Below, one piece after another: positions 1-44,191 of a DNA stretch of 64,000 bases. The notes under the pieces were generated by a model. It saw only the letters and a program-made list of their open reading frames with translations, was not told where the DNA came from and made no database searches. A program made the position numbers and the translations under genes. The stretch lies in NCBI RefSeq assembly GCF_016903815.1, contig NZ_CP069973.1; one strand, written 5' to 3'. The DNA is from Escherichia coli. GTDB lineage: Bacteria; Pseudomonadota; Gammaproteobacteria; Enterobacterales; Enterobacteriaceae. Each line of letters opens with the position of its first letter. The first letter of the stretch is position 1.

Positions 1-219
1 GCTGGCGGACACTGTACCGGCAAAATCAATGCCTGGCACCATTGGAAAGTGCCGGACGATAGGCCCGCGGCCCGTAATAGCCAGTGCGTCTTTGTAGTTG
101 ATAGATGAACAGTCGACATTGACCTCCACATCCCCCTGTGGCAGCTCGCTTTCAGCGATTTCAGCAATTTGGGCACTGTGGCGGTCATCCATCTTACTGA
201 TTAATAATGATTTAAACAT
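1..219 (-). CDS. Partial CDS (N-terminal part; continues beyond window start): YhdH/AcuI-like MDR-superfamily NADPH-dependent oxidoreductase
   Basis: Reverse-strand translation from ATG at 217-219 reads MFKSLLISKMDDRHSAQIAEIAESELPQGDVEVNVDCSSINYKDALAITGRGPIVRHFPMVPGIDFAGTV, which aligns with the N-terminus of E. coli YhdH/AcuI (SSLNYKDALAITGKG...PMIPGIDFAGTV). Not the K-12 yhdH locus, so probably island cargo. Confidence 0.6.
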   Translation of the reverse strand, partial: MFKSLLISKMDDRHSAQIAEIAESELPQGDVEVNVDCSSINYKDALAITGRGPIVRHFPMVPGIDFAGTVSAS

Positions 220-872
220 TTTTTTTCTCGTCTTTCTGGTTTGATGTCATTGAGCTATAAAGTAGTCAATAAACAATATTGACCGATCGTCTAATAATCA
301 ACGCTGATATCCCAGTGTTTGTCAGAAAACAAGAATTGCTTTTCTTTTCATCAGGTTAAATCTATCTTTTTTGATTTATATCAAACCAGATTCGGTCTTC
401 AATTATATAGGCATCAATGTTAGCGGTCCTACAAGATACGCAGTCGATGCTTCAGGGCGTACTGATGAAATAAAACAAGTAGGCTGAGATTAGTTGGTCT
501 GCTCATCGCTCACAGCGGACCTTCAGCTTCGTTAGCCAAGCGCTGACATAGTTACCGATGTAGCGTGTTAATCTGTCGGGAGCATAGCCGAAATCACTTA
601 ATCCATTAGACTTCACCTAAAACTGCAAAAATTACCGTCTTTGTCACACTCACCGAGTTTAATCAAACTAACACTGTACATAGTGCGAACAAGAGCCAAC
701 CAGAAAGACTGTTCAGCATCAACAGTGAAGTTTTTCCCCGCCACTTCCCCGCAATTCCTCCGCAGTTTTCCCACTAGAGAGTTCGACACATCCCTTGCAT
801 ACCAACGCTTTGATTCAAATCTCGGTAGTGCATCCAATTAGTAGAATATGTGTTTTTCGATAAATGCTCCGA

Positions 873-1232
873 TCACTTTTTCGTGGATCTCAACTGAGCG
901 TGAGAAGCAGATTGTTTACGAGCCAACCGCTTAATGTGGGTGCGTAGCGTCAGATTATTACGCTCAATGCGTTGGGTGAATATTTTGCCGGTCAGATGCT
1001 TATTCTTCGGCACCACCCGGCCATAGCTGTCCCAGTCATCGCTGGTGAGCATGCCGATGTTGAAGGGTGTAAGCAGTGCCAGTAGCTCCCGGCACGTTTG
1101 ATTGGTTCGGGGACCAAAAGTGTAGGCCAGTACACCGCCTGTTTTGGTGTTGTACGCGTACCAGAGCCAGTGTAGCCGGGCTTTACTGCCAACGTAGCTC
1201 CATTGCTCATCAAGCTCGCAGATAAGCGCCAC
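873..1232 (-). CDS. insB: IS1-family InsB-like transposase segment (probably expressed as InsAB' by -1 frameshift, or N-terminally truncated)
   Basis: 119 aa ORF ...CELDEQWSYVGSKARLHWLWYAYNTKTGGVLAYTFGPRT... matches the IS1 InsB catalytic region (compare [25 protein letters not shown]...). Confidence 0.7.
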   Translation of the reverse strand: MALICELDEQWSYVGSKARLHWLWYAYNTKTGGVLAYTFGPRTNQTCRELLALLTPFNIGMLTSDDWDSYGRVVPKNKHLTGKIFTQRIERNNLTLRTHIKRLARKQSASHAQLRSTKK

Positions 1233-1258
1233 ATCAGCATGGGCAACAGGCGAAGAAG

Positions 1259-1531
1259 TTATTTGCGTTGGCGCGAGTTTTTTAAAGTCCGGATGATGGT
1301 GTTAATACCAATTTTCAGTGTCCTGGCGGTATCGCGAACCCCGGCACCATTAAAGGCCATTTCAGTGATCATCTCTTTCATACCCGGCTTACGTGCTTGA
1401 TAAGTATAAGTGAGCTGAAACACACGGTGGCAGTCACGGCAGCGAAATCTGTCACGGCCTTTAGGGTTCTGACCATGGCGGTAAACCTGAGCTGACTGAC
1501 AACGGGGACAATGAATATTAACGCTGGCCAT
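1259..1531 (-). CDS. insA: IS1-family InsA-like protein (zinc-finger/HTH transposition regulator)
   Basis: 90 aa MASVNIHCPRCQSAQVYRHGQNPKGRDRFRCRDCHRVFQLTYTYQARKPG...; CxxC...CxxC pattern and colinearity with canonical IS1 InsA. Confidence 0.8.
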   Translation of the reverse strand: MASVNIHCPRCQSAQVYRHGQNPKGRDRFRCRDCHRVFQLTYTYQARKPGMKEMITEMAFNGAGVRDTARTLKIGINTIIRTLKNSRQRK

Positions 1532-1783
1532 GAGATAACCTCAAAAGCCCGTATTATACATCAGATTCAACCAATTAGAGGCATCACCCTTTCCTACATT
1601 CGTAGGACTTTGATTACATATAGCAAGGGTTAATTCTTATATACATAGAATAAATTAGGAATATAATGAATTTTATCGTGACGACCTTATTTATAATTAA
1701 TTTATATCGTCAGAGAAATTAGTGTCCACAACATGAAGCCTTACAAAGAGATTCTATGATTTAAAAAAAATAAGAGCCAGCTT

Positions 1784-3253
1784 ATGCATATCGATTCGAC
1801 TGAAAAAAATAATAAACAAAAGTTGGGCTTGCTTGCGCTAACATCCATTGTCGTGAGCTCGATGATCGGCAGCGGCGTTGACGGACTCCCCCAGAATATG
1901 GCGGAGAATTCTGCCGTGGGCCCGGTGGCGATAGCATGGATAGTCTGTGGTATCGGCATGTTTTTCATCTCCAGAACTTTTATCGTGCTGTCAAACATTA
2001 GACCTGATCTCCAGTCAGGAGTTTATATGTATGCCCGGGAAGGGTTCGGCCGATTTACGGCATTTAACGTCGCCTGGGGCTACTGGCTGATGACTATATT
2101 CAGCAACGTCGCCTTTGCCATTATGGTGATGGATACGCTGAATTATTTCTTACCAGGTGATTTCAAGGGAGGGAACAATATTCCTTCCGTTATCGGTGCC
2201 TCTTTGCTGATATGGGGATTCAACTTTTTAGTCCTCTCCGGTACCCGCATTGCCGGGTCGATTAACATCGTCGGCACGCTGGCCAAACTGATCCCGCTGG
2301 TGGCCTTTATTATTATTCTCATGCTGTTTATGAAGTACACCACGTTCGCAGATAACGTCTGGGGGCACAGCGCGAGTAAGGCCAGTCAGGACCTAGGCTC
2401 TATTTTCTCACAGGTAACTTCACCGCTTAGCGTGGCACTCTGGAGCTTCATCGGCGTTGAGGGGGCTGTCGCTCTTTCCGGTCGGGCCAAAAATAAACGC
2501 GACGTGGGTAAAGCCACATTCATTGGCTTCGTTGTATCACTGATTATCTGTCTGCTGGTCTCCATCCTGCCGTTTGGCGTGCTGACTCAACATGAGCTCA
2601 GCGCAATTCCAACCCCATCCACCGCCGGTATTCTGAAGATTGTTGTCGGTGAATGGGGGAAGATTATGATTATCTTGGGGGTGCTGATTTCGGTGCTTAC
2701 CAGCTGGCTGGCGTGGACCATCATCTGCGCCGAACTGCCTATGGTGGCCGCGCAGAACGGCACATTCCCGAAACCGTTCAGCAAAAAAAATGTGAAGGGT
2801 TCGGCCTCGGTTTCGCTTTATATAAGCAGTGCGTTTATGCAAATCGTCGTACTTCTGGTCTACTTTTCTAACGATGCCTGGCTTGCAATGCTGGCTATCT
2901 CTACCCTGACCGTTTTACCTGCGTATTTAATGACCACGGCATACCTGTTTAAACTATGTATTAGCGGCGAGTATGCCAGCTATACCACGAATCACAGCCG
3001 CAGCGCCGCGCTGGTCAGCAGTATTATCGGCTTTGTATTCTGCCTGTTTATGTTCTACGCCAGTGAAATCAAATATCTGGCGATGGTTCCGGTGCTGCTT
3101 ACGCTGGGCGTGCCCCTGTTTATCTGGGCAAGAAAAAAAGACGATCGCGCAGATAAAATATTTACGCTACGCGAACTGGCATTTTTTATTTTACTGCTGG
3201 TCCTCGACATCATTGTTTTTATTCTACTGCATTATAAAACGATACATTTTTAG
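1784..3253 (+). CDS. ArcD/YdgI-type basic amino acid/polyamine antiporter (APC superfamily, APA family), copy 1
   Basis: 489 aa; ATG at 1784 with AAGAG RBS; N-terminal KLGLLALTSIVVSSMIGSGV..LPQNMA motif and GVEGAVALSGRAKNKRDVGKAT motif typical of ArcD/YdgI arginine:ornithine-type exchangers; multiple hydrophobic helices. Confidence 0.85.
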   Translation: MHIDSTEKNNKQKLGLLALTSIVVSSMIGSGVDGLPQNMAENSAVGPVAIAWIVCGIGMFFISRTFIVLSNIRPDLQSGVYMYAREGFGRFTAFNVAWGYWLMTIFSNVAFAIMVMDTLNYFLPGDFKGGNNIPSVIGASLLIWGFNFLVLSGTRIAGSINIVGTLAKLIPLVAFIIILMLFMKYTTFADNVWGHSASKASQDLGSIFSQVTSPLSVALWSFIGVEGAVALSGRAKNKRDVGKATFIGFVVSLIICLLVSILPFGVLTQHELSAIPTPSTAGILKIVVGEWGKIMIILGVLISVLTSWLAWTIICAELPMVAAQNGTFPKPFSKKNVKGSASVSLYISSAFMQIVVLLVYFSNDAWLAMLAISTLTVLPAYLMTTAYLFKLCISGEYASYTTNHSRSAALVSSIIGFVFCLFMFYASEIKYLAMVPVLLTLGVPLFIWARKKDDRADKIFTLRELAFFILLLVLDIIVFILLHYKTIHF

Positions 3254-3357
3254 TCCAGATTAATTCACAGCAAGTTAAGGTGACGATAATGTCTGTTTCT
3301 TGGGCATGACATCCTCACAGTTAAATACTATCTGAACAGTAACAGTGGAGACACCTA

Positions 3358-5727
3358 ATGAAATTTAACCACAATCTTTTATTTATTTCCTCACAATATC
3401 TTGATGGCGACAACCCTTCGCAGCAGGTACTGGAAGAGCTTCAAACCGAACTCGCGGAACGCGGTTTTAAAATTCATATCACGCACCAGATCTCTGATGG
3501 ATTAAAAATCATCGAAAAAAGCCCCCAATACAGCGGGATTGGTTTTTACTGGGAGCCAGACAATCCGACCTTTGCAGAAGAGCTACAGCACTTTATCAGC
3601 ATATTCCGCAAAAGAAATGCCACGACGCCGCTGATAATTTTCTCAGAACAGAATATTACCGATCGTATCCCACTCGACGTCTTAAAAGAGGTCAGCGAAT
3701 ATGTTTATCTGTTCTCTGAATCCGCAGCCTTCACTGCCAATCGACTGTACTCCTTAGTCCACCGCTATGCGGATAAGCTTCTTCCTCCCTACTTTAAAAC
3801 CCTTAAGGACTTTACCGAGGACGGTGACTATTACTGGGACTGCCCGGGGCATATGGGGGGAATGGCCTATCTGAAACATCCTGTTGGCATTGAGTTCATT
3901 AACTTCTTTGGCGAAAACATGATGCGCGCTGATATTGGCGTGGCTACCGCGGAGATGGGGGATTATCTGATCCACGCCGGACCGCCTAAAAAATCGGAAG
4001 AAATTGCGGCCCGACTGTTTGGCTCTGATTGGACCTTCTACGGTGTTTCCGGCTCATCGGGGTCGAACCGTATTGTGGCCCAGGCTGCGGTTGGCGCAGA
4101 TGAAATTGCCATTATTGACCGAAATTGCCACAAGTCACTTAATCATGGCCTGACCTTGTCTCAGGCAAGGCCGGTTTACCTGAAACCTACCCGCAACGCG
4201 TGGGGGCTGATTGGGCCTATCCCGACCGGACGCCTGAAGAAGGCCAGTATTGATGCGCTGGTGGCAAACAGCCGACTGGCATCTGGTGCGGTCAGCCAGT
4301 CCCCGTCCTACGCCGTGGTAACCAACTGCACCTATGATGGCTTCTGTTATAACGTGAACGATGTAGTCAGACACCTGGGTGAAAGCGCACCGCGCATCCA
4401 TTTTGATGAAGCATGGTATGCCTATGCGCGTTTCCATCCGCTATACCAGAGTCGCTATGCAATGGACGCGGAGGAAACGCCAAATCGTCCAACCCTATTC
4501 GCCGTACAGTCCACCCATAAAATGCTGCCCTCACTCTCCATGGCCTCAATGATTCATGTGAAGAAAAGCGATCGCGCGCCGCTTAATTTCGATGACTTTA
4601 ACGATGCCTTTATGATGCACGGCACGACCTCACCCTACTACCCGATCATTGCATCAATTGATGTGGCAGTAAGCATGATGGAGGGTGAATCCGGTTATTC
4701 GCTTGTGCAGGAGTCAATTGAAGAAGCGATTGCCTTCCGTAAAGCCGTGGTCAGCGTCAAGCGCCAGCTCCAGGAGCAGGAAGGTGGTGACGCCTGGTTC
4801 TTCGATGTGCTTCAGCCAACCGAAGTGCAGGACAGCGATTCTGGGCAGCGATACAGTTTTGAAGAGGCACCCGTATCGCTGCTGAGCCACAGCGCCGACT
4901 GCTGGTCGCTGCGCTCCGGTGAGCGCTGGCACGGTTTTGCCGATGATGATCTGGTCGAAACCAACAGTATGCTCGATCCAGTAAAAGTGACCCTGACTTG
5001 TCCAGGGATCGGCCCGAAGGGAGAATACCAGAAAAACGGTATTCCGGGATATTTGCTGACCCGTTTTCTCGATGACCGTCGCATTGAAATTGCCCGTACT
5101 GGTGACTACACCGTGCTGATCCTGTTCTCCGTCGGCATCACCAAAGGCAAATGGGGAACTCTGATTGAAAGCCTGCTGGCCTTTAAAAAGCATTACGACA
5201 ATGACGATCTGGCCACAGATGCTATCCCGTCGCTGAAAGCGCATTCTCCACACTACGACACGCTAACCCTCAAGGAGCTATGTCAGATAATGCATGAAAA
5301 AATGGATGAGCTGGAGCTGATGTCGCATATCAACGACGCGGTAAACACCGATCCGGAACCAGTTATGACCCCGGCAGAAGCCTATCAGAAAGTCGTACGC
5401 TACAAAACCGAGCATATCCGGCTGGATGATTTTAGCGGCAGAATTGCCGCCAGCATGCTCGTCCCATATCCCCCAGGCATTCCTGTACTGATGCCGGGCG
5501 AACGGATGCCGCAAGGTAACAAGGGCATTATTGGCTATCTGCGCGCCCTGCAGGAATTCGATAAGCAATTCCCAGGTTTTGAACATGAGATCCAGGGCGT
5601 TAACGTCGATGAAGACGGGGACTTCTGGGTCAGAGCGATTGTGGAAGAAGAACGCGATGGGCAGTCGCTACCCGGCCACATAACCTTTAAACGCCAGGTC
5701 TCTGGTATTAAAAAGGGCCGCCAGTAG
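3358..5727 (+). CDS. PLP-dependent Orn/Lys/Arg decarboxylase, AdiA/CadA/SpeF family (fold-I, with N-terminal wing domain); substrate not assignable from sequence
   Basis: 789 aa; GGAGA RBS before ATG 3358; conserved blocks shared with E. coli AdiA (YWDCPGHMGG, SGSSGSNRIV, DRNCHKSLNHGL, VVTNCTYDGFCYN, HFDEAWYAYARF, STHKML with the PLP-binding Lys, ASIDVAVSMMEG, MLDPVKVTL, KGKWGTL, PYPPGIPVLMPGE, FPGFEHE). Longer than AdiA (755 aa) with a distinct C-terminal tail. Confidence 0.9.
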   Translation: MKFNHNLLFISSQYLDGDNPSQQVLEELQTELAERGFKIHITHQISDGLKIIEKSPQYSGIGFYWEPDNPTFAEELQHFISIFRKRNATTPLIIFSEQNITDRIPLDVLKEVSEYVYLFSESAAFTANRLYSLVHRYADKLLPPYFKTLKDFTEDGDYYWDCPGHMGGMAYLKHPVGIEFINFFGENMMRADIGVATAEMGDYLIHAGPPKKSEEIAARLFGSDWTFYGVSGSSGSNRIVAQAAVGADEIAIIDRNCHKSLNHGLTLSQARPVYLKPTRNAWGLIGPIPTGRLKKASIDALVANSRLASGAVSQSPSYAVVTNCTYDGFCYNVNDVVRHLGESAPRIHFDEAWYAYARFHPLYQSRYAMDAEETPNRPTLFAVQSTHKMLPSLSMASMIHVKKSDRAPLNFDDFNDAFMMHGTTSPYYPIIASIDVAVSMMEGESGYSLVQESIEEAIAFRKAVVSVKRQLQEQEGGDAWFFDVLQPTEVQDSDSGQRYSFEEAPVSLLSHSADCWSLRSGERWHGFADDDLVETNSMLDPVKVTLTCPGIGPKGEYQKNGIPGYLLTRFLDDRRIEIARTGDYTVLILFSVGITKGKWGTLIESLLAFKKHYDNDDLATDAIPSLKAHSPHYDTLTLKELCQIMHEKMDELELMSHINDAVNTDPEPVMTPAEAYQKVVRYKTEHIRLDDFSGRIAASMLVPYPPGIPVLMPGERMPQGNKGIIGYLRALQEFDKQFPGFEHEIQGVNVDEDGDFWVRAIVEEERDGQSLPGHITFKRQVSGIKKGRQ

Positions 5728-5745
5728 GCGGGGGAAAGAACAATA

Positions 5746-5771
5746 CCGTCGGATCGCCTGCAATCCGACGG
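5746..5771 (+). promoter_or_regulatory. Intercistronic stem-loop between the decarboxylase and the downstream antiporter (possible attenuator or mRNA processing/stability element)
   Basis: Inverted repeat CCGTCGGAT-cgcctgca-ATCCGACGG (9-bp stem) in the 74-bp spacer; no strong T-run follows. Confidence 0.4.
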
Positions 5772-5801
5772 CAATATTATAGAATAGCTGAGGGAAACGT
5801 T

Positions 5802-7301
5802 ATGGCAGAGCAATCTTCAGATGTAAAAAATAGTGACAATAGCGCCGGAGGACATAAGCTGGGGCTTATATCCCTCATCGCTATTGTCGTTAGCTCCATG
5901 CTGGGAGGCGGCGTTTTCAGTCTGCCGCAAAACACGGCGGCCTCTTCTGCACTAGGGCCAGTAATCATTGCATGGATTATTGCCGGGATCGGTATTTATT
6001 TTATCGCAAACTCCTTTCGCGTACTATCAGATCTGCGCCCGGACCTTCAGGCTGGAGTGTATATGTATGCCCAGGAAGGTTTTGGTTCCTTTATTGGCTT
6101 TAACGTCGCCTGGGGCTACTGGCTGATGACCGCATTTGGCAACGTTGCCTTTGCGGTAATTTTAATGGATGCTTTTAATCAGTTTATGCCGGGGGTTTTT
6201 ACGGATGGTAATAATCTGAACTCCATTATCTGCGGCTCAGTGCTGATCTGGGGCTATAATTTTCTTGTTCTGTCCGGGACGAAAGTGGCCGGATTTGTTA
6301 ACACCTTGGGAACCATCGCCAAGCTCGTCCCTCTGATCCTATTCGTATTACTGCTGGGTGTGCTGATCGATTATTCGGACCTGTTTAAAAACTTTTGGGG
6401 AGAATCACCCGCGATCCTCAGTGGCAACGGAAATGACGCCGCACCAGTATCGCTGCTGTCTCAGATTCTGGCACCGATGACCGTAACGCTCTGGGCCTTT
6501 ATTGGCGTCGAGGGAGCGGTTGTTCTATCCGGACGTGCCAAAAATAAACAGGACGTAGGGAAAGCCACACTGATCGGCTTTCTGCTGGCGCTAATTATTT
6601 ATATGTTAATGTCCATTCTGCCGTTCGGTGTAATGCCTCAGGCAGAACTAGCGCAGGTCAGTAACCCCTCTACCGCAGGCGTGCTCGCCCACGTTGTCGG
6701 TCAGTGGGGCGACTGGCTGATGAGCGCGGGGCTGATTATTTCTGTTCTGGCCGGCTGGCTTGCCTGGACCATGCTATGCGCTGAAATACCGATGGTAGCA
6801 GGACAGAAAGGCGCTTTCCCGCGCGCGTTTGCCCGAACGAACAGTAAACAGGCGGCCAATGTGTCACTGTGGGTTAGTAGCTTTGTGATGCAGGCGGCCA
6901 TGTTACTTGTTTATTTTTCAAATAATGCTTGGACCACCATGTATAATATCAGTGCGCTGATGGTTGTTCCGGCCTATATTACCACCACGCTGTATCTGAC
7001 CAGTATTTGCAGAAACGGAAAATATGATCAGTATGCAAAAAAAGGCCGCAGGCTGGCTTTGTCCAGCGGTGTTTTAGGCTCGCTATTCTGTCTGTTTATT
7101 CTTTACGCCAGCCAGATTGAGTATGTTGCATTAATTCCTATCCTGTTGACCTGTGGTCTGCCGGTCTTTATCTGGTCAAGAAAAGAAAAAAATGATGGTC
7201 AGCCGATATTTACCAAAAAAGAGCTGATTTATCTGATTATGCTGTTGCTGTGCGATATTATCGTCGTTGCCCTGTTTATTGGTGGATATTTAAAGGTATA
7301 A
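5802..7301 (+). CDS. ArcD/YdgI-type basic amino acid/polyamine antiporter (APA family), copy 2 (paralog of 1784..3253)
   Basis: 499 aa; GAGGGA RBS; same motifs as copy 1 (KLGLISLIAIVVSSMLGGGVFSLPQNTA, GVYMYAQEGFG, FNVAWGYWLMT, GVEGAVVLSGRAKNKQDVGKAT) with long collinear identity. Confidence 0.85.
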   Translation: MAEQSSDVKNSDNSAGGHKLGLISLIAIVVSSMLGGGVFSLPQNTAASSALGPVIIAWIIAGIGIYFIANSFRVLSDLRPDLQAGVYMYAQEGFGSFIGFNVAWGYWLMTAFGNVAFAVILMDAFNQFMPGVFTDGNNLNSIICGSVLIWGYNFLVLSGTKVAGFVNTLGTIAKLVPLILFVLLLGVLIDYSDLFKNFWGESPAILSGNGNDAAPVSLLSQILAPMTVTLWAFIGVEGAVVLSGRAKNKQDVGKATLIGFLLALIIYMLMSILPFGVMPQAELAQVSNPSTAGVLAHVVGQWGDWLMSAGLIISVLAGWLAWTMLCAEIPMVAGQKGAFPRAFARTNSKQAANVSLWVSSFVMQAAMLLVYFSNNAWTTMYNISALMVVPAYITTTLYLTSICRNGKYDQYAKKGRRLALSSGVLGSLFCLFILYASQIEYVALIPILLTCGLPVFIWSRKEKNDGQPIFTKKELIYLIMLLLCDIIVVALFIGGYLKV

Positions 7302-7443
7302 GTCCGAGTTAAATCTTTACTGGGCTAGTAATGCCGCCTTTTAAACAAGAAGGGCGGCAATCTTACTGAAATTAGTATGCTGCAAATCGGTAATGCTGCC
7401 AACTTACTGATTTAGTGTATGATGGTGATTTTAAGGTGCTTGC

Positions 7444-7719
7444 GTGGCTTCCATTTCCATCAGATGTCCTTCCTGCTCCGCTACTGAAGGCGTGGTGCGT
7501 AACGGCAAAAGCACTGCCGGACATCAGCGCTATCTCTGCTCTCACTGCCGTAAAACATGGCAACTGCAGTTCACTTACACCGCTTCTCAACCCGGTACGC
7601 ACCAGAAAATCATTGATATGGCCATGAATGGCGTTGGATGCCGGGCAACTGCCCGCATTATGGGCGTTGGCCTCAACACGATTTTACGTCACTTAAAAAA
7701 CTCAGGCCGCAGTCGGTAA
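7444..7719 (+). CDS. insA: IS1 InsA
   Basis: 91 aa [91 protein letters not shown]. Confidence 0.95.
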
Positions 7720-8141
7720 CCTCGCGCATACAGCCGGGCAGTGACGTCATCGTCTGCGCGGAAATGGGCGAACAGTGGGGCTATGTCGGGGCTAAATCGC
7801 GCCAGCGCTGGCTGTTTTACGCGTATGACAGGCTCCGGAAGACGGTTGTTGCGCACGTATTCGGTGAACGCACGATGGCGACGCTGGGGCGTCTTATGAG
7901 CCTGCTGTCACCCTTTGACGTGGTGATATGGATGACGGATGGCTGGCCGCTGTATGAATCCCGCCTGAAGGGAAAGCTGCACGTAATCAGCAAGCGATAT
8001 ACGCAGCGAATTGAGCGGCATAACCTGAATCTGAGGCAGCACCTGGCACGGCTGGGACGGAAGTCGCTGTCGTTCTCAAAATCGGTGGAGCTGCATGACA
8101 AAGTCATCGGGCATTATCTGAACATAAAACACTATCAATAA
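7638..8141 (+). CDS. insB: IS1 InsB (expressed as InsAB' fusion by frameshift)
   Basis: 167 aa ORF ...[40 protein letters not shown]...[10 protein letters not shown], canonical IS1 InsB. Confidence 0.95.
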
Positions 8142-8156
8142 GTTGGAGTCATTATC

Positions 8157-8949
8157 TAACCGTAGCGTTTATTACGCGCAGGTGACGCGTCCTGTTAATG
8201 TGCAAAGAATTGACTTACGAAGTCGGGTGAGGGCTTTCCATGCTCTCAGTCGTGGCGCAGCCGGTAGCCGTGCAATCAGTCAGATGTTGCGCCAGAGTAG
8301 CGTTGATGCAGGCCGGTGGCTGGCACGACGACTGATGCGGGAATGCGGGCTGACAAGTCGACAGATGGTTAAACATCACTACCGGGTCAACGAAGACAAA
8401 AGTCCGCCATTGCCAAATTTACTGAACCGGCAATTTCACCCCGCCGCACCAGACCGCGTCTGGTGCGGCGACATCAGTTTTATTCGCCTGCATGACAAAT
8501 GGTGTTAGCTCGCGCTCGTTGTTGATTTATATTCACGGCGGATTACCGGTTCAGCCCTCTCATTAACCGCTGATGCTGAGTTGGTGTGTAGGGCTTTGCG
8601 TAATGCACTGGAAACACGATCACGTGATGGCCGTCTGCTGTTTCATTCAGATCAAGGTGTTCAGTATAAAAGCAATAAATACAGAAAGTTACTCTGGCGT
8701 TATGGGGTAATGCAAAGTATGAGTTGCAGAGGGAATGGCCTGGATAATTCGCCGATGGAAAGAGTCTTTCGCAGCCTTAAAAATGAATGGCTTCCGAAAG
8801 GTGGTTATGGTGATTTTATCCATGCGGTACGTGATATAAACCAGTGGATTAATGGTTATTACAACGTTTATCGACCTCACACGAACAACGATGGTTTACC
8901 GCCTTGCTTACATGAAGAAAAGTGGAAACAGGTTATTCCGGTGTCCTGA
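8157..8949 (+). pseudogene. IS3-family transposase OrfB remnant: 5' part (OrfA and start of OrfB) removed by the IS1 insertion, plus an in-frame TAG at 8506-8508
   Basis: Single reading frame translates ...[49 protein letters not shown]...[11 protein letters not shown]...[13 protein letters not shown]...[15 protein letters not shown], collinear with IS3/IS2-type OrfB; the amber codon sits where family members have Tyr (WLYLAVV). 3' end of the element not precisely located (probably within ~40 bp after 8949). Confidence 0.8.
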
Positions 8950-9166
8950 TTTTGTGAACCACTACAATAATCCTTTTTCACAGACTTGTCAGCAGCCAGC
9001 ATTTATGTTCTTTTACCTGCGGGAATTTATCCGTCTGCCTGTCGGGACTACTCTGTCATACAGAAATCAGGTAGGAATAAATTGTAGTGGAAAGTCGATG
9101 TTTACCGGATGACTGATGCGCGCTTGTACACAGACAGTGTGTTTCAGTAATATGGAGAATAATGAA

Positions 9167-9667
9167 ATGAATAACACAGACACATTAGAAAAAATAATCA
9201 GACACCAAAAAAACAAAGACCCCGCATATCCCTTTCGGGAACATTTGTTGATGCAGCTCTGTATTCGCACAAATAAAAGAATGCAGGATAATATATCTGA
9301 ATTTCTGGGGGCGTATGGAATAAATCACTCAGCATATATGGTTCTCACCACATTATTCGCAGCGGAGAACCATTGTCTGTCACCTTCAGAGATAAGCCAG
9401 AAACTTCAGTTTACCAGAACTAATATTACCCGCATTACAGATTTTTTAGAAAAAGCCGGATATGTAAAAAGGACGGATAGCAGGGAGGATCGCCGTGCTA
9501 AAAAAATCAGTCTGACATCTGAAGGTATGTTTTTTATTCAGAGGCTCACTCTTGCACAAAGCATGTATCTGAAAGAAATCTGGGATTATCTGACTCATGA
9601 TGAACAGGAACTGTTTGAAGTCATTAATAAAAAATTACTGGCACATTTTTCTGATGCCAGCTCATAA
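9167..9667 (+). CDS. MarR-family transcriptional regulator, EmrR/MprA-like (possibly a PapX/SfaX-type 17-kDa regulator)
   Basis: ORF 9116..9667; likely start ATG 9167 after GGAGA. Sequence ...YPFREHLLMQLCIRTNKRM...GINHSAYMVLTTLFAAENHCLSPSEISQKLQFTRTNITRITDFLEKAGYVKRTDSREDRRAKKISLTSEG... aligns with EmrR (winged-helix region [28 protein letters not shown]). Surrounded by AT-rich DNA. Confidence 0.8.
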   Translation: MNNTDTLEKIIRHQKNKDPAYPFREHLLMQLCIRTNKRMQDNISEFLGAYGINHSAYMVLTTLFAAENHCLSPSEISQKLQFTRTNITRITDFLEKAGYVKRTDSREDRRAKKISLTSEGMFFIQRLTLAQSMYLKEIWDYLTHDEQELFEVINKKLLAHFSDASS

Positions 9668-10133
9668 AGTGCGAAATATCTGAGGATGCTGGATAGCTTC
9701 AGGCAAGAGAATAATGATTCTTGCAGATGTGTTTTTCCGGATACAAAAACAAAAGTAAAAAATTGCAGCGCCAGGCCACCTTTCAAAGCAGGGAGGCTTG
9801 TACCGCGTCGAAAATTTCAGCCAGTTAATGTAATTGTCTGAACCAGGCACTTCGCCCGGGCAGGAGAAGGAGCGTGGTTGCGGTCATCCTGTATACTGAA
9901 GTCGTTATGAAGGAATAATACAAATAATTGCCCGTTTTCTCTGTACGATAGAGGCAGGTGTGTATGATTGCATCACTATGTTTTTGTGATATAAAAAACT
10001 AAATGGTGAGATATGCATTTTAAAATATAACAAAAATCACCATGAAATAAGAATAATTATCCACGGAGAACATAAACTGCAGACTGTTACAATGCATGCT
10101 GTTCATCTTGACAATGTCGGTAATGACTCCAAC

Positions 10134-10637
10134 TTATTGATAGTGTTTTATGTTCAGATAATGCCCGATGACTTTGTCATGCAGCTCCACCGATTTTGAG
10201 AACGACAGCGACTTCCGTCCCAGCCGTGCCAGGTGCTGCCTCAGATTCAGGTTATGCCGCTCAATTCGCTGCGTATATCGCTTGCTGATTACGTGCAGCT
10301 TTCCCTTCAGGCGGGATTCATACAGCGGCCAGCCATCCGTCATCCATATCACCACGTCAAAGGGTGACAGCAGGCTCATAAGACGCCCCAGCGTCGCCAT
10401 CGTGCGTTCACCGAATACGTGCGCAACAACCGTCTTCCGGAGCCTGTCATACGCGTAAAACAGCCAGCGCTGGCGCGATTTAGCCCCGACATAGCCCCAC
10501 TGTTCGCCCATTTCCGCGCAGACGATGACGTCACTGCCCGGCTGTATGCGCGAGGTTACCGACTGCGGCCTGAGTTTTTTAAGTGACGTAAAATCGTGTT
10601 GAGGCCAACGCCCATAATGCGGGCAGTTGCCCGGCAT
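10134..10637 (-). CDS. insB: IS1 InsB
   Basis: 167 aa, identical in translation to the InsB at 7638..8141. Confidence 0.95.
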
Positions 10638-10831
10638 CCAACGCCATTCATGGCCATATCAATGATTTTCTGGTGCGTACCGGGTTGAGAAGCGGTGTAA
10701 GTGAACTGCAGTTGCCATGTTTTACGGCAGTGAGAGCAGAGATAGCGCTGATGTCCGGCAGTGCTTTTGCCGTTACGCACCACGCCTTCAGTAGCTGAAC
10801 AGGAGGGACAGCTGATAGAAACAGAAGCCAC
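10556..10831 (-). CDS. insA: IS1 InsA
   Basis: 91 aa [37 protein letters not shown]..., canonical InsA. Confidence 0.95.
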
Positions 10832-11360
10832 TGGAGCACCTCAAAAACACCATCATACACTAAATCAGTAAGTTGGCAGCATCACCCAATCTGCTGACAG
10901 ACGAAGATAATGAACCCGTTATGGTTTTTAACGGAGAGAGGAATGTACTGGCAGACAGTCTGAAACCACAGCCTCTGATTCTTCCGGTCAAGGGAAAATA
11001 AGCGTAATGTTCATCACCAGATTATGTACGATGAGTTTTCCACTGTTTATAGCAATTATCTTGCTAATAACCAGACAGGAGTAACCAGACCAACCGAAAA
11101 CACCGGGAAGGTGATTACCCGCTGGCAGAGGAAATCCGGTTTTTTTTGATGTCAGCCATAACGTGTTTGACAATAAAGCATCATGAAAGGGTGTTAATGA
11201 GTCCATGGGATAATTCATAAAAATAATTTACTGTGTTATCCTTTTCAAAAGAAATATTCAGAAGATAACCCCTGGCTGACAACCAGGGGAAGGGGGCATT
11301 AACAGTGTTATTATTGGTGAATAAATTATTACTTGTGTGCAGGATACACTAATGCAATAT

Positions 11361-12659: not shown

Positions 12660-13925
12660 TCACCTTTTCAGTGGATTGTTAACTTTTGCATATTCAAACG
12701 GACTGATACACTCCTCCCTGTTTGCATCCAGAAAATCTGCCCACCATTGCAGCATAAGCCGACGTTCTTCCAGATGTTCTGCTTTATGAATATACGCGGC
12801 ACGTACTCCGTTGCGCTCCTGATGACTCATCTGACGTTCAACCGCATCTCTTGACCATAAGCCGGATTCAATCAATGCACTGCACGCCATCGCCCGGAAT
12901 CCATGGCCACAGACTTCCTTGGTTGTGTCATACCCCATCACCCTCAGGGCTTTATTTACAGTATTTTCACTGATTGGTTTACGCGGGTCATGTGCACCCG
13001 TAAATATCAGACCATTTTCACCTGCCCATGTCTGAAGTTCTGTCAGTATGGCTACAGCCTGTTTACTGAGTGGCACAAGATGTGGTGTCCGCATCTTGGA
13101 GCCCCGGTGTGAGAATTTTACGCCAGGCAGAGGTTCGCGTTCGGCTGGAATAGTCCACATGGCATTGTCAATATCAATTTCAGACCAGCGGGCATATCTG
13201 AGTTCACTGGAACGAATAAAAACCAGTAAATTCAGCATAACGGCAAGCCGGGTGACAGGCTGGCCTTTATAACCGTCAATACGCGACAGAAGTTCAGGCA
13301 GGCGTGAAAGATTCAGAGCGGGGCGATGCTGGCGTTTTACCGTGGTCAATGCACCAGCCATATCCAGAGCCGGGTTATATCTGATGATGCCAGACTGTAC
13401 GGCGTAACGCATTACAGCAGATATTCTTTGCTGCAGACGACTAGCGATTTCATAAATTTGTTTTGCTTCTGCAGCACGAACAGGGATAAGCAGGTCCGGG
13501 GTATTGAGTGTTGTGATATCCCGGTTGCCGATAAAGGGGAAAACGTGTGTCTCGAGGCTTTTGAGTACTTTATCGCTGTGTGATTGTGCCCATTGTTTAT
13601 TACTGGCATGCCAGCGTCGTGCAATATGTTCAAAAGAGAGCTGTAAATCAGGGACTACTTTTTTAACTCTTTTCTGTTCGCAAGGGTCAATCCCCTCTGA
13701 AATCAGTTTTCGGGCCTCATCCCGTTTTGTACGAGCTTCGGAGAGAGAAACTTCTGGATACACACCAAGTGCCAGAGTCTTCTCCTTACCCAGAATACGA
13801 TAACGGAGACGCCAGTAACGGGAACCATTAGGATGAACCAGCAGGAACATGCCGGCCCCGTCAGTGAGTTTATAAGCCTTGTCAGTGGGCTTTGCAGCCC
13901 GGATTTTTGCGTCAGTCAGTGCCAT
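12660..13925 (-). CDS. P4-type (phage/island) tyrosine integrase, tRNA-associated
   Basis: 421 aa MALTDAKIRAAKPTDKAYKLTDGAGMFLLVHPNGSRYWRLRYR..GKEKTLALGVYPEVSLSEARTKRDEARKLI...; C-terminal region with HGFRAMACSALIESG...R and catalytic-type motifs; adjacent to the 3' end of tRNA-Phe. Confidence 0.93.
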   Translation of the reverse strand: MALTDAKIRAAKPTDKAYKLTDGAGMFLLVHPNGSRYWRLRYRILGKEKTLALGVYPEVSLSEARTKRDEARKLISEGIDPCEQKRVKKVVPDLQLSFEHIARRWHASNKQWAQSHSDKVLKSLETHVFPFIGNRDITTLNTPDLLIPVRAAEAKQIYEIASRLQQRISAVMRYAVQSGIIRYNPALDMAGALTTVKRQHRPALNLSRLPELLSRIDGYKGQPVTRLAVMLNLLVFIRSSELRYARWSEIDIDNAMWTIPAEREPLPGVKFSHRGSKMRTPHLVPLSKQAVAILTELQTWAGENGLIFTGAHDPRKPISENTVNKALRVMGYDTTKEVCGHGFRAMACSALIESGLWSRDAVERQMSHQERNGVRAAYIHKAEHLEERRLMLQWWADFLDANREECISPFEYAKVNNPLKR

Positions 13926-14122: not shown

Positions 14123-14198
14123 TGGTGCCCGGACTCGGAATCGAACCAAGGACACGGGGATTTTCAATCCCCTGCTCTACCGACTGAGCTATCCGGGC
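14123..14198 (-). tRNA. pheU: tRNA-Phe(GAA)
   Basis: Reverse complement reads GCCCGGATAGCTCAGTCGGTAGAGCAGGGGATTGAAAATCCCCGTGTCCTTGGTTCGATTCCGAGTCCGGGCACCA (76 nt, CCA end, GAA anticodon). Confidence 0.97.
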
Positions 14199-43771: not shown

Positions 43772-43847
<76 letters not shown>

Positions 43848-44004
43848 AAATTTGAAAAGTGCTGCAAAGCACAGACCACCCAATCGCAGTATTTCGAATT
43901 GCGACAAGGCGGCAACTGAACGAATCCTTGGGAGCTTACAAAAGTAAGTGACTAAGGTGAGTGAAGGCAGCCAAGGCAGTAGCGGTTCGAAAGACGAAGA
44001 TTAA

Positions 44005-44080
<76 letters not shown>

Positions 44081-44115
44081 AAATTTGAAAGTGCTGTAAA
44101 GCACAGACCACCCAA

Positions 44116-44191
<76 letters not shown>

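Follow-up and report, generated by a model that had tools for sequence, protein, structure and literature searches.

The stretch of Escherichia coli DNA analyzed here, 64,000 nt of contig NZ_CP069973.1 (assembly GCF_016903815.1; hereafter the window), carries close to its left end an operon for an amino acid decarboxylase and two antiporters, which is bracketed by two inverted members of the IS1 family of insertion sequences (IS), IS1-A and IS1-B. A third member, IS1-C, lies farther to the right (Table 1). Over positions 1589-7388 and at every junction queried the window is a 100% match to the chromosome of E. coli strain 7/2. Positions 1 to approximately 14,200 belong to a genomic island and make up the end that carries its integrase. 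The island has pheU as its insertion site, which is the tRNA-Phe gene beside dicD-dsbD-cutA-dcuA, and its other end is beyond the left limit of the window. For the island genes, the annotation was taken over from the RefSeq record of strain 7/2, the locus of which is 100% identical, and the positions were recalculated for the window. An initial annotation of the window had described the bracketed segment as resembling a composite transposon, which could either be mobilizable as a unit or have been stranded by IS-mediated rearrangement.

Table 1. Features at the integrase-proximal end of the island, in window coordinates.
Feature	Position	Strand	Basis
Zinc-type alcohol dehydrogenase 5' remnant, pseudogene	1..219	-	RefSeq annotation of strain 7/2 locus
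IS1-A, divergent, IS1N-like, pseudogene, 765 bp	824..1588	-	IS1 search; annotated as frameshifted; Pfam PF03811, PF12759, PF03400
AT-rich 195-bp region between IS1-A and antiporter 1 gene	1589..1783	+	Sequence
Antiporter 1, basic amino acid/polyamine, APC superfamily, ArcD-like, 489 aa	1784..3253	+	NCBIfam TIGR00905
Orn/Lys/Arg-family pyridoxal phosphate (PLP)-dependent decarboxylase, 789 aa, closest to arginine decarboxylase AdiA	3358..5727	+	NCBIfam, structures
Antiporter 2, basic amino acid/polyamine, 499 aa	5802..7301	+	NCBIfam TIGR00905
Unit of IS1-B, IS3 remnant, marR and IS1-C, invertible and excisable, 3.5 kb	7389..10886		Genome comparison
IS1-B, chimeric IS1, 768 bp, insA and insB intact	7389..8156	+	Alignments, open reading frames
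IS3-family transposase remnant, 5'-truncated, adjoins IS1-B	8157..8949	+	Annotation
MarR-family (MprA/EmrR-like) regulator gene, between IS1-B and IS1-C	9116..9667	+	NCBIfam MprA model
IS1-C, canonical IS1, 768 bp, inverted relative to IS1-B, insA and insB intact	10119..10886	-	IS1 search, open reading frames
Phosphoethanolamine-transferase gene, last 115 nt, truncated by IS1-C	10887..11001	+	Collinear with M16807 (L100)
Tyrosine recombinase, P4-type island integrase	12660..13925	-	Open reading frame, annotation, Pfam Arm-DNA-bind_3 and Phage_integrase matches
tRNA-Phe (GAA), pheU copy, island attachment site	14123..14198	-	ARAGORN, annotation

Searches of the whole window with IS1 (blastn and tblastn) returned exactly three IS1-family copies, and they bore out the positions and inverted orientations that the initial annotation had given to IS1-A and IS1-B on either side of the 5.8-kb segment, in which all three open reading frames (ORFs) are on the plus strand. 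The copies have the characteristics of the family, i.e., a length of approximately 768 bp, inverted repeats starting with GGT(G/A)(A/G)TG, the insA and insB' ORFs and the Pfam domains Zn_ribbon_InsA, HTH_Tnp_IS1 and DDE_Tnp_IS1. The exceptions are the frameshift in IS1-A and the outer tip of IS1-B, at its right inverted repeat (IRR), which reads GATAATG and not GGTAATG. At the nucleotide level IS1-A is 52.7-53.5% identical to the other two copies (52.7% to IS1-B), and its InsA shares 39 of 91 residues (43%) with IS1 InsA. It had been called a divergent IS1 isoform; divergent it is, but with so little identity it represents a different member of the family and not an isoform. The closest named type in the RefSeq annotation is IS1N (92% over 200 nt). 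Compared with the intact 766-bp copy of strain 600029 (locus L003), IS1-A has a 1-nt deletion that shifts the frame of InsB', owing to which approximately 30 C-terminal residues are replaced. It is the sole copy of its type in strain 7/2, found at one place in the record, and the same genome has approximately 12 IS1 copies. In one cattle isolate (SMN013SH2) elements of the IS1-A type occupy at least 40 places, and a truncated fragment of this type is found on pO157-type plasmids.

IS1-B and IS1-C are 98.2% identical, inverted relative to each other and separated by 1.96 kb. The differences are unevenly distributed, as nucleotides 1 to approximately 160 of IS1-B derive from an older isoform that is approximately 91% identical to canonical IS1 and nucleotides from approximately 178 to 766 are identical to IS1-C; beyond nucleotide 160 or so the two copies differ by one base only, in the outer tip. 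IS1-B is thus a chimera, and the alignment of B and C copies from several genomes places the breakpoint at approximately nucleotides 160-178. When compared with the isoform of L003 and L086, IS1-B is 99.4% identical over nucleotides 1-160 and 91-92% over nucleotides 161-768, and the IS1 found at the B position in L003, L085, L086 and L102 is an isoform approximately 91-93% identical to IS1 over its full length. The designation of IS1-B as canonical IS1 consequently applies to the part that matches IS1-C but not to its first 160 nucleotides. In APEC O1 and in strain 631 the B and C copies have private substitutions in common, which indicates that the two have exchanged sequence, and such substitutions shared within single genomes point to concerted evolution.

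The 9-bp flanks of the elements are TCAAATCTC and CTTTCCTAC for IS1-A, CTGCAAATC and TAACCGTAG for IS1-B, and GACAATGTC and CAATCTGCT for IS1-C. No direct repeat of 9 bp or shorter was found for any of the three copies, for the A-B composite or for the B-C unit, and the arrangements expected after inversion or duplicative inversion of B-C gave no duplication either. Between the outer flanks of the A-B composite, TCAAATCTC on the left and TAACCGTAG on the right, there is no common word of 6 nt or longer, and the flanks of the B-C unit (CTGCAAATC and CAATCTGCT) show no duplication. The only common word of at least 6 nt in the 15-nt flanks, CAAATC, is shared by two left flanks, and by estimate approximately one such word would occur by chance. 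The lack of 9-bp repeats at all three copies, already pointed out in the initial annotation, was therefore reproduced, and a 9-bp duplication around the whole A-B composite was looked for and not found. The outer ends of the bracketing pair, A-IRR at 824 and B-IRR at 8156, match at 14 of 23 positions, as against 17-18 of 23 when the left and right ends of one and the same element are compared.

A set of 5,426 complete E. coli genomes was surveyed for the operon and its junctions. Of these, 494 contain the 5.8-kb segment at a coverage of at least 80%, the best matches being chromosomal, and a 1.2-kb internal decarboxylase probe detected 510 places in 508 records from 507 genomes, hence the decarboxylase gene is single-copy. 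No match to the segment was found by megablast among the plasmids of PLSDB (2024). The left inner junction (IS1-A/operon) was found in 481 genomes and the right inner junction (operon/IS1-B) in at least 447, with 63 more having a 20-bp IS1 remnant at that place. Among the fetched E. coli and Shigella loci, the end of IS1-A adjoins the operon in all 28 in which the left boundary is included, and the right boundary is formed by the end of IS1-B in 28 loci and by the 20-bp remnant in nine. The left outer junction, between the dehydrogenase side and IS1-A, occurs in 378 genomes, and no left flank lacking IS1-A was seen in the sampled ranking of matches to this junction. The dehydrogenase remnant is a constant left neighbor, being present also in APEC O1, L003, L004, strain 631 and ATCC 11775.

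If the A-B pair moved the segment, related genomes might contain it between IS1 copies elsewhere, but every context examined is the same Phe-tRNA island, at pheU or at pheV. The same block of at least 14 kb resides at pheU in the window, APEC O1 and ATCC 11775 and at pheV in strains 631 and 4/2-1, where the site adjoins yqgA-speC, which indicates that the block travels with the island and not by IS1. Both inner junctions are kept in the L003/L004 lineage, the operon genes of which are 98.7-99.4% identical to those of the window, and the bracket must therefore be old. Decayed versions of the operon exist as well. In YPE3 the decarboxylase gene is truncated by canonical IS1. In Shigella dysenteriae (L101; CM136162.1, 8774-11194) 33 nt of IS1-A are left and canonical IS1 truncates the gene of antiporter 1; neither the decarboxylase nor antiporter 2 has been retained, and the next locus is a Qat defense system. 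The decarboxylase and antiporter 2 have been lost in L122 too.

To the right of the operon the picture is one of repeated change. The left junction of IS1-B is constant, and the DNA on its right side differs in at least six lineages: it is the IS3 remnant in the window, the marR side in the inverted form, an IS600 fragment in L086, L107 and L108, a different transferase remnant in L003 and L004, and two further sequences in L085 and L102. The segment between IS1-B and IS1-C is inverted in APEC O1, ATCC 11775 and strain 631, and both breakpoints of the inversion are inside the IS1 copies (L002, L087, L112). According to a 1,768-nt query spanning the operon tail, IS1-B and the IS3 remnant, 89 of the 267 genomes with an IS1/IS3-remnant junction have the orientation of the window and approximately 178 the other one; shorter queries, with 200 nt on either side of the inner junctions of IS1-B and IS1-C, are blind to the orientation, as inversion preserves those junctions. 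As the segment exists in both orientations, that of marR relative to the operon changes.

In the 63 genomes with the remnant, IS1-B, the IS3 remnant, marR and most of IS1-C are absent, and what follows the operon tail directly is the terminal 20 nt of IS1-C. This remnant, AGTAAGTTGGCAGCATCACC, was seen in L089, L091, L093 and L095; in L089 it occupies positions 10032-10051, the join corresponding to window position 7388 followed by 10867-10886. The two sides meet at a microhomology, AAATC, present at 7384-7388 and at 10862-10866; when extended it matches at nine of ten positions. Retention of the last 20 nt of IS1-C at this microhomology identifies the short form as a deletion product and not as an empty site.

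Adjacent deletions and inversions caused by IS1, as well as the "nearly precise excision" of inverted-repeat transposons such as Tn10, are said to have been described by Reif and Saedler in 1975, Turlan and Chandler in 1995 and Foster et al. in 1981. The locus resembles the former in that one IS junction is fixed while the other side is variable, and in the inversion between inverted copies. As regards the latter, the form with the 20-bp remnant resembles nearly precise excision of inverted-repeat transposons, since the palindromic B-C unit appears to have been lost between short direct repeats, located near the base of the inverted repeats, with a short IS end left behind. There is no difference in kind from these processes, the present case being that of a natural population and reconstructed from genome comparison.

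The island end beyond IS1-B also exists without the operon. In L129, a pap-carrying pheV island that lacks the operon, the region that begins with IS3, continues with marR, IS1-C and the transferase remnant and ends with the integrase has the same order as in the window, at 99.6% identity, and the IS3 element continues uninterrupted across the point where IS1-B abuts it in the window. Together with the chimeric structure of IS1-B, this suggests that a crossover within IS1 joined the operon and the old IS1-B to this island end. IS1-C sits 115 nt before the stop codon of the transferase gene; M16807 (L100) has a longer copy of this gene, the 3' end of which is collinear with the remnant and which extends farther upstream, and the window is without that upstream part. 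In L133 (AP021935.1, 4274-8022) a unit of IS1, IS3 remnant, marR and IS1 abuts a truncated nupG in an orientation that is wrong for pheV; this arrangement suggests a larger IS1-mediated rearrangement reaching core genes.

Outside E. coli, where one genome per species was searched, orthologous operons with 70-86% amino acid identity are carried by other genera and by two plasmids. Those most similar in their decarboxylase are from Klebsiella sp. (81% amino acid identity), Citrobacter sp. (79%), Providencia and Proteus (78%) and Commensalibacter (77%). The order antiporter-decarboxylase-antiporter is kept in Citrobacter, Klebsiella sp., Proteus, Providencia, Commensalibacter, Bordetella and Alcaligenes, and tblastn detected no IS1 InsA or InsB within approximately 10 kb on each side of the orthologous chromosomal loci. 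The operon is thus an old, self-contained unit that is not defined by IS1. The plasmid orthologs (74-75% identity in tblastn) are those of Salmonella Macclesfield and Providencia rettgeri. On the IncFIB megaplasmid of the former only the downstream antiporter is annotated beside the decarboxylase, the Providencia plasmid has all three genes, and no IS1 is annotated beside the decarboxylase on either plasmid. Nearly all members of the 90%-identity protein clusters are from E. coli or Shigella. More distant homologs of the decarboxylase (40-66% identity) extend to Victivallis, Acidobacteria and methanogens.

The initial annotation had reasoned that finding the cluster elsewhere without IS1, with the IS1 ends interrupting unrelated genes, would speak for independent insertions and not for a composite unit. 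This holds in part: the orthologs of other genera and of the two plasmids have no IS1 detected or annotated beside them, and in E. coli the ends of the elements abut truncated unrelated genes, namely the IS3-family remnant and the transferase remnant. The non-coding DNA upstream and downstream of the E. coli operon gave no alignment to the orthologous loci, only coding sequence being aligned, for which reason the extent of the original promoter region is not reconstructable. Loss of a regulator gene to the insertion of IS1-A was considered but gained no support. In Klebsiella sp. and Citrobacter sp. the operon is preceded by three genes of opposite orientation that are conserved between the two (342, 570, and 326-327 aa), and in the ORF lists no candidate for a regulator lies between these genes and the operon.

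Regarding the gene products, both antiporters score above the cut-off of TIGR00905 (antiporter 1, 486.7 bits against a cut-off of 409; antiporter 2, 493 bits), and both are below every cut-off of the substrate-specific equivalog models. They are approximately 55% identical to each other and their paralogy is seen in tblastn cross-hits; a 117-nt stretch with 81% DNA identity between the two genes (2003-2118 and 6039-6154) is a trace of it. The decarboxylase belongs to the Orn/Lys/Arg family, whose members are PLP enzymes of fold type I that have a wing domain, having the domains OKR_DC_1_N, OKR_DC_1 and OKR_DC_1_C (PF03709, PF01276, PF03711), and can be aligned over its full length to the AdiA structures 7P9B (E 4e-191) and 2VYC (E 3.5e-187), with its S-T-H-K PLP-lysine motif in register. 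It falls short of the equivalog model NF011603 for AdiA, the biodegradative arginine decarboxylase of acid resistance system 3, with 740.3 bits against a cut-off of 1167. A promoter-like match (10 of 12 consensus positions) is located at 1640-1667, such a scan being weak evidence on its own.

On these sequence grounds the operon most likely encodes an amino acid decarboxylase/antiporter system for proton consumption or polyamine production. Like AdiA/AdiC, CadA/CadB and SpeF/PotE, it combines a PLP-dependent decarboxylase of the Orn/Lys/Arg family with adjoining antiporter genes of the APC family. Unlike in those systems, however, the decarboxylase is below every NCBIfam equivalog cut-off, and two ArcD-like antiporters flank the enzyme in place of one antiporter of the AdiC, CadB or PotE type. 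Moreover, no regulator resembling AdiY or CadC is encoded next to the operon. A literature search for the operon or the island module (pheU/pheV, decarboxylase, antiporter, IS1) yielded nothing specific.

With a probability of approximately 0.85, the operon is a cargo module of the island the edges of which have been remodeled by IS1 through deletion, inversion and recombination, and the bracket is not a working composite transposon. The operon would have been acquired horizontally as cargo of an integrase-carrying Phe-tRNA island, here at pheU and elsewhere at pheV, and its junctions with two unlike IS1-family elements would have been fixed once, early in the history of the module in E. coli. 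It is proposed that the target duplications are missing as a result of later IS1-driven events on the outer sides of the elements. Such events may have included adjacent deletions and homologous recombination between IS1 copies, by which the module would have been joined to the other island end with its IS3 remnant, marR, IS1-C, transferase remnant and integrase. Flip-flop inversion by way of the inverted copies B and C, and a deletion at a microhomology that removed the B-C unit as a whole, may likewise be among them. Both the order of the events and the assignment of each junction to an adjacent deletion or an IS1-IS1 crossover are what we infer from the comparisons. The part of the initial annotation that favored IS1-mediated recombination or deletion, and stranding by rearrangement, is upheld by the recombinant IS1-B, the variable right flank, the B-C inversion and the transferase gene truncated by IS1-C. 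Three of the four features that define a composite transposon, namely like IS copies, a target duplication and occurrence in more than one context, are absent here.

Several observations weigh against this interpretation. The two elements lie close to the operon, at distances of only 195 bp on its upstream and 87 bp on its downstream side, which looks like IS-mediated capture and leaves room for an ancient IS-mediated delivery. IS1 transposase, which is available from IS1-C and approximately ten other copies, might act on the ends of IS1-A. As to the survey, its counts are lower bounds in IS1-rich genomes, since up to 40 pieces per record were retained, one of the 510 decarboxylase places is on a record typed as plasmid, which carries part of the gene, and approximately 13 operon-positive genomes have no match of at least 80% to the left inner junction.

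The delivery of the operon into the island by one or both IS1-family elements, be it by composite or one-ended transposition or by cointegrate resolution, with subsequent loss of the duplications and of mobility, is an unlikely alternative. The small amount of non-coding DNA inside the bracket is in line with it, as are the facts that both junctions predate the L003/L004 split (a difference of 0.6-1.3% in the operon genes) and that beyond E. coli and Shigella even the closest ortholog has no more than 81% amino acid identity. However, IS1-A and IS1-B are different family members, which makes joint action of the two improbable. Neither a donor nor an intermediate containing IS1 was encountered, and the orthologous loci in other genera lack adjacent IS1. 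In addition, on present data the pattern left by such a delivery is the same as that of two independent insertions beside the operon.

Two further ideas can be raised, which are very unlikely. Although the two elements are only approximately 53% identical, the ends of IS1-A and IS1-B might be cross-recognized by canonical IS1 transposase acting in trans, so that the bracket would be a heterologous-ended composite that is rarely mobile, and the B-C inversion might be a recombinational switch acting on marR or on read-through from the operon.

Mobility of the cluster as a unit, the other possibility raised initially, would mean that IS1 transposase supplied in trans recognizes the outer ends of IS1-A and IS1-B and moves a 7.3-kb unit. 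The known IS1 composites give a measure for this. Tn9 has direct IS1 copies and carries cat, and Tn1681 has inverted copies and carries the heat-stable enterotoxin. The present locus is similar to both in that IS1-family elements flank a cargo of a few kb, and to Tn1681 also in the inverted orientation. In Tn9 and Tn1681, however, the IS1 copies are near-identical, there are 9-bp duplications and transposition has been shown, whereas the elements here are approximately 53% identical, one of them is frameshifted, there is no duplication and a single genomic context was seen. Another comparison is with the IS1-flanked aerobactin (iuc/iut) region of ColV-type and IncF plasmids. A passage in PMC4707298, citing Perez-Casal & Crosa 1984 and de Lorenzo 1988, describes this region, with its IS1 copies in inverted orientation, as transposable by experiment and notes that a target duplication is lacking there likewise. 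Yet the aerobactin region is plasmid-borne and has like IS1 copies, while the decarboxylase module is chromosomal, bound to the island and flanked by unlike elements. It is true that the cargo is formally bracketed by two inverted IS1-family elements and that intact InsA and InsB could be provided by IS1-B and IS1-C, with approximately 12 IS1 copies in the matching genome. Nevertheless, the outer ends are dissimilar (14 of 23), IS1-A is frameshifted and alone of its type, the outer tip of IS1-B is mutated and no target duplication exists. Furthermore, the segment is single-copy with a constant left neighbor, always in Phe-tRNA islands in the contexts examined, and has no plasmid match in PLSDB. 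A working composite is therefore extremely unlikely.

Finally, it is scarcely credible that B-C is itself a real composite, with both left inverted repeat (IRL) ends pointing outward, that was inserted next to the operon and is missing from an empty site in the 63 genomes: although IS1-B and IS1-C are 98% identical inverted copies flanking 1.96 kb and the unit is indeed absent from those genomes, the "empty" allele retains the last 20 nt of IS1-C at the 5-nt microhomology, as expected of a deletion product, no duplication relates CTGCAAATC to CAATCTGCT, operon-free islands, in which IS3 is uninterrupted at that point, have a collinear segment that runs from IS3 by way of marR and IS1-C to the transferase remnant, and the first 160 nt of IS1-B are those of the old isoform found beside the operon in lineages without IS1-C.

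The remaining features of the island end are in line with its tRNA-integrated character, a tyrosine recombinase gene being located next to a tRNA gene at the island boundary. Two hypothetical genes lie between the transferase remnant and the integrase. The product of the MarR-family gene scores 120.7 bits with the NCBIfam MprA model, which is below the cut-off, and in islands without the operon marR adjoins pap genes. In the core-genome part of the window there are three tRNA-Gly(GCC) genes in tandem (43772-44191), an ordinary tRNA cluster.

The finding that related IS elements lie on both sides of an operon does not by itself point to a composite transposon, and should be treated with caution. 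In the present case the comparative data reveal a bracket that is fixed and decayed and that is part of a Phe-tRNA island. The reshaping of island ends by IS1 copies is clearly illustrated by this natural locus, where an IS1 has become chimeric, a segment has undergone flip-flop inversion, an inverted IS pair has been lost by way of a microhomology and deletions on one side have reached into neighboring genes. The operon itself is an uncharacterized cargo; approximately 9% of the complete genomes of E. coli have it, among them those of APEC O1 and of ATCC 11775, the type strain, and it may deserve functional testing as an accessory acid-resistance or polyamine system.

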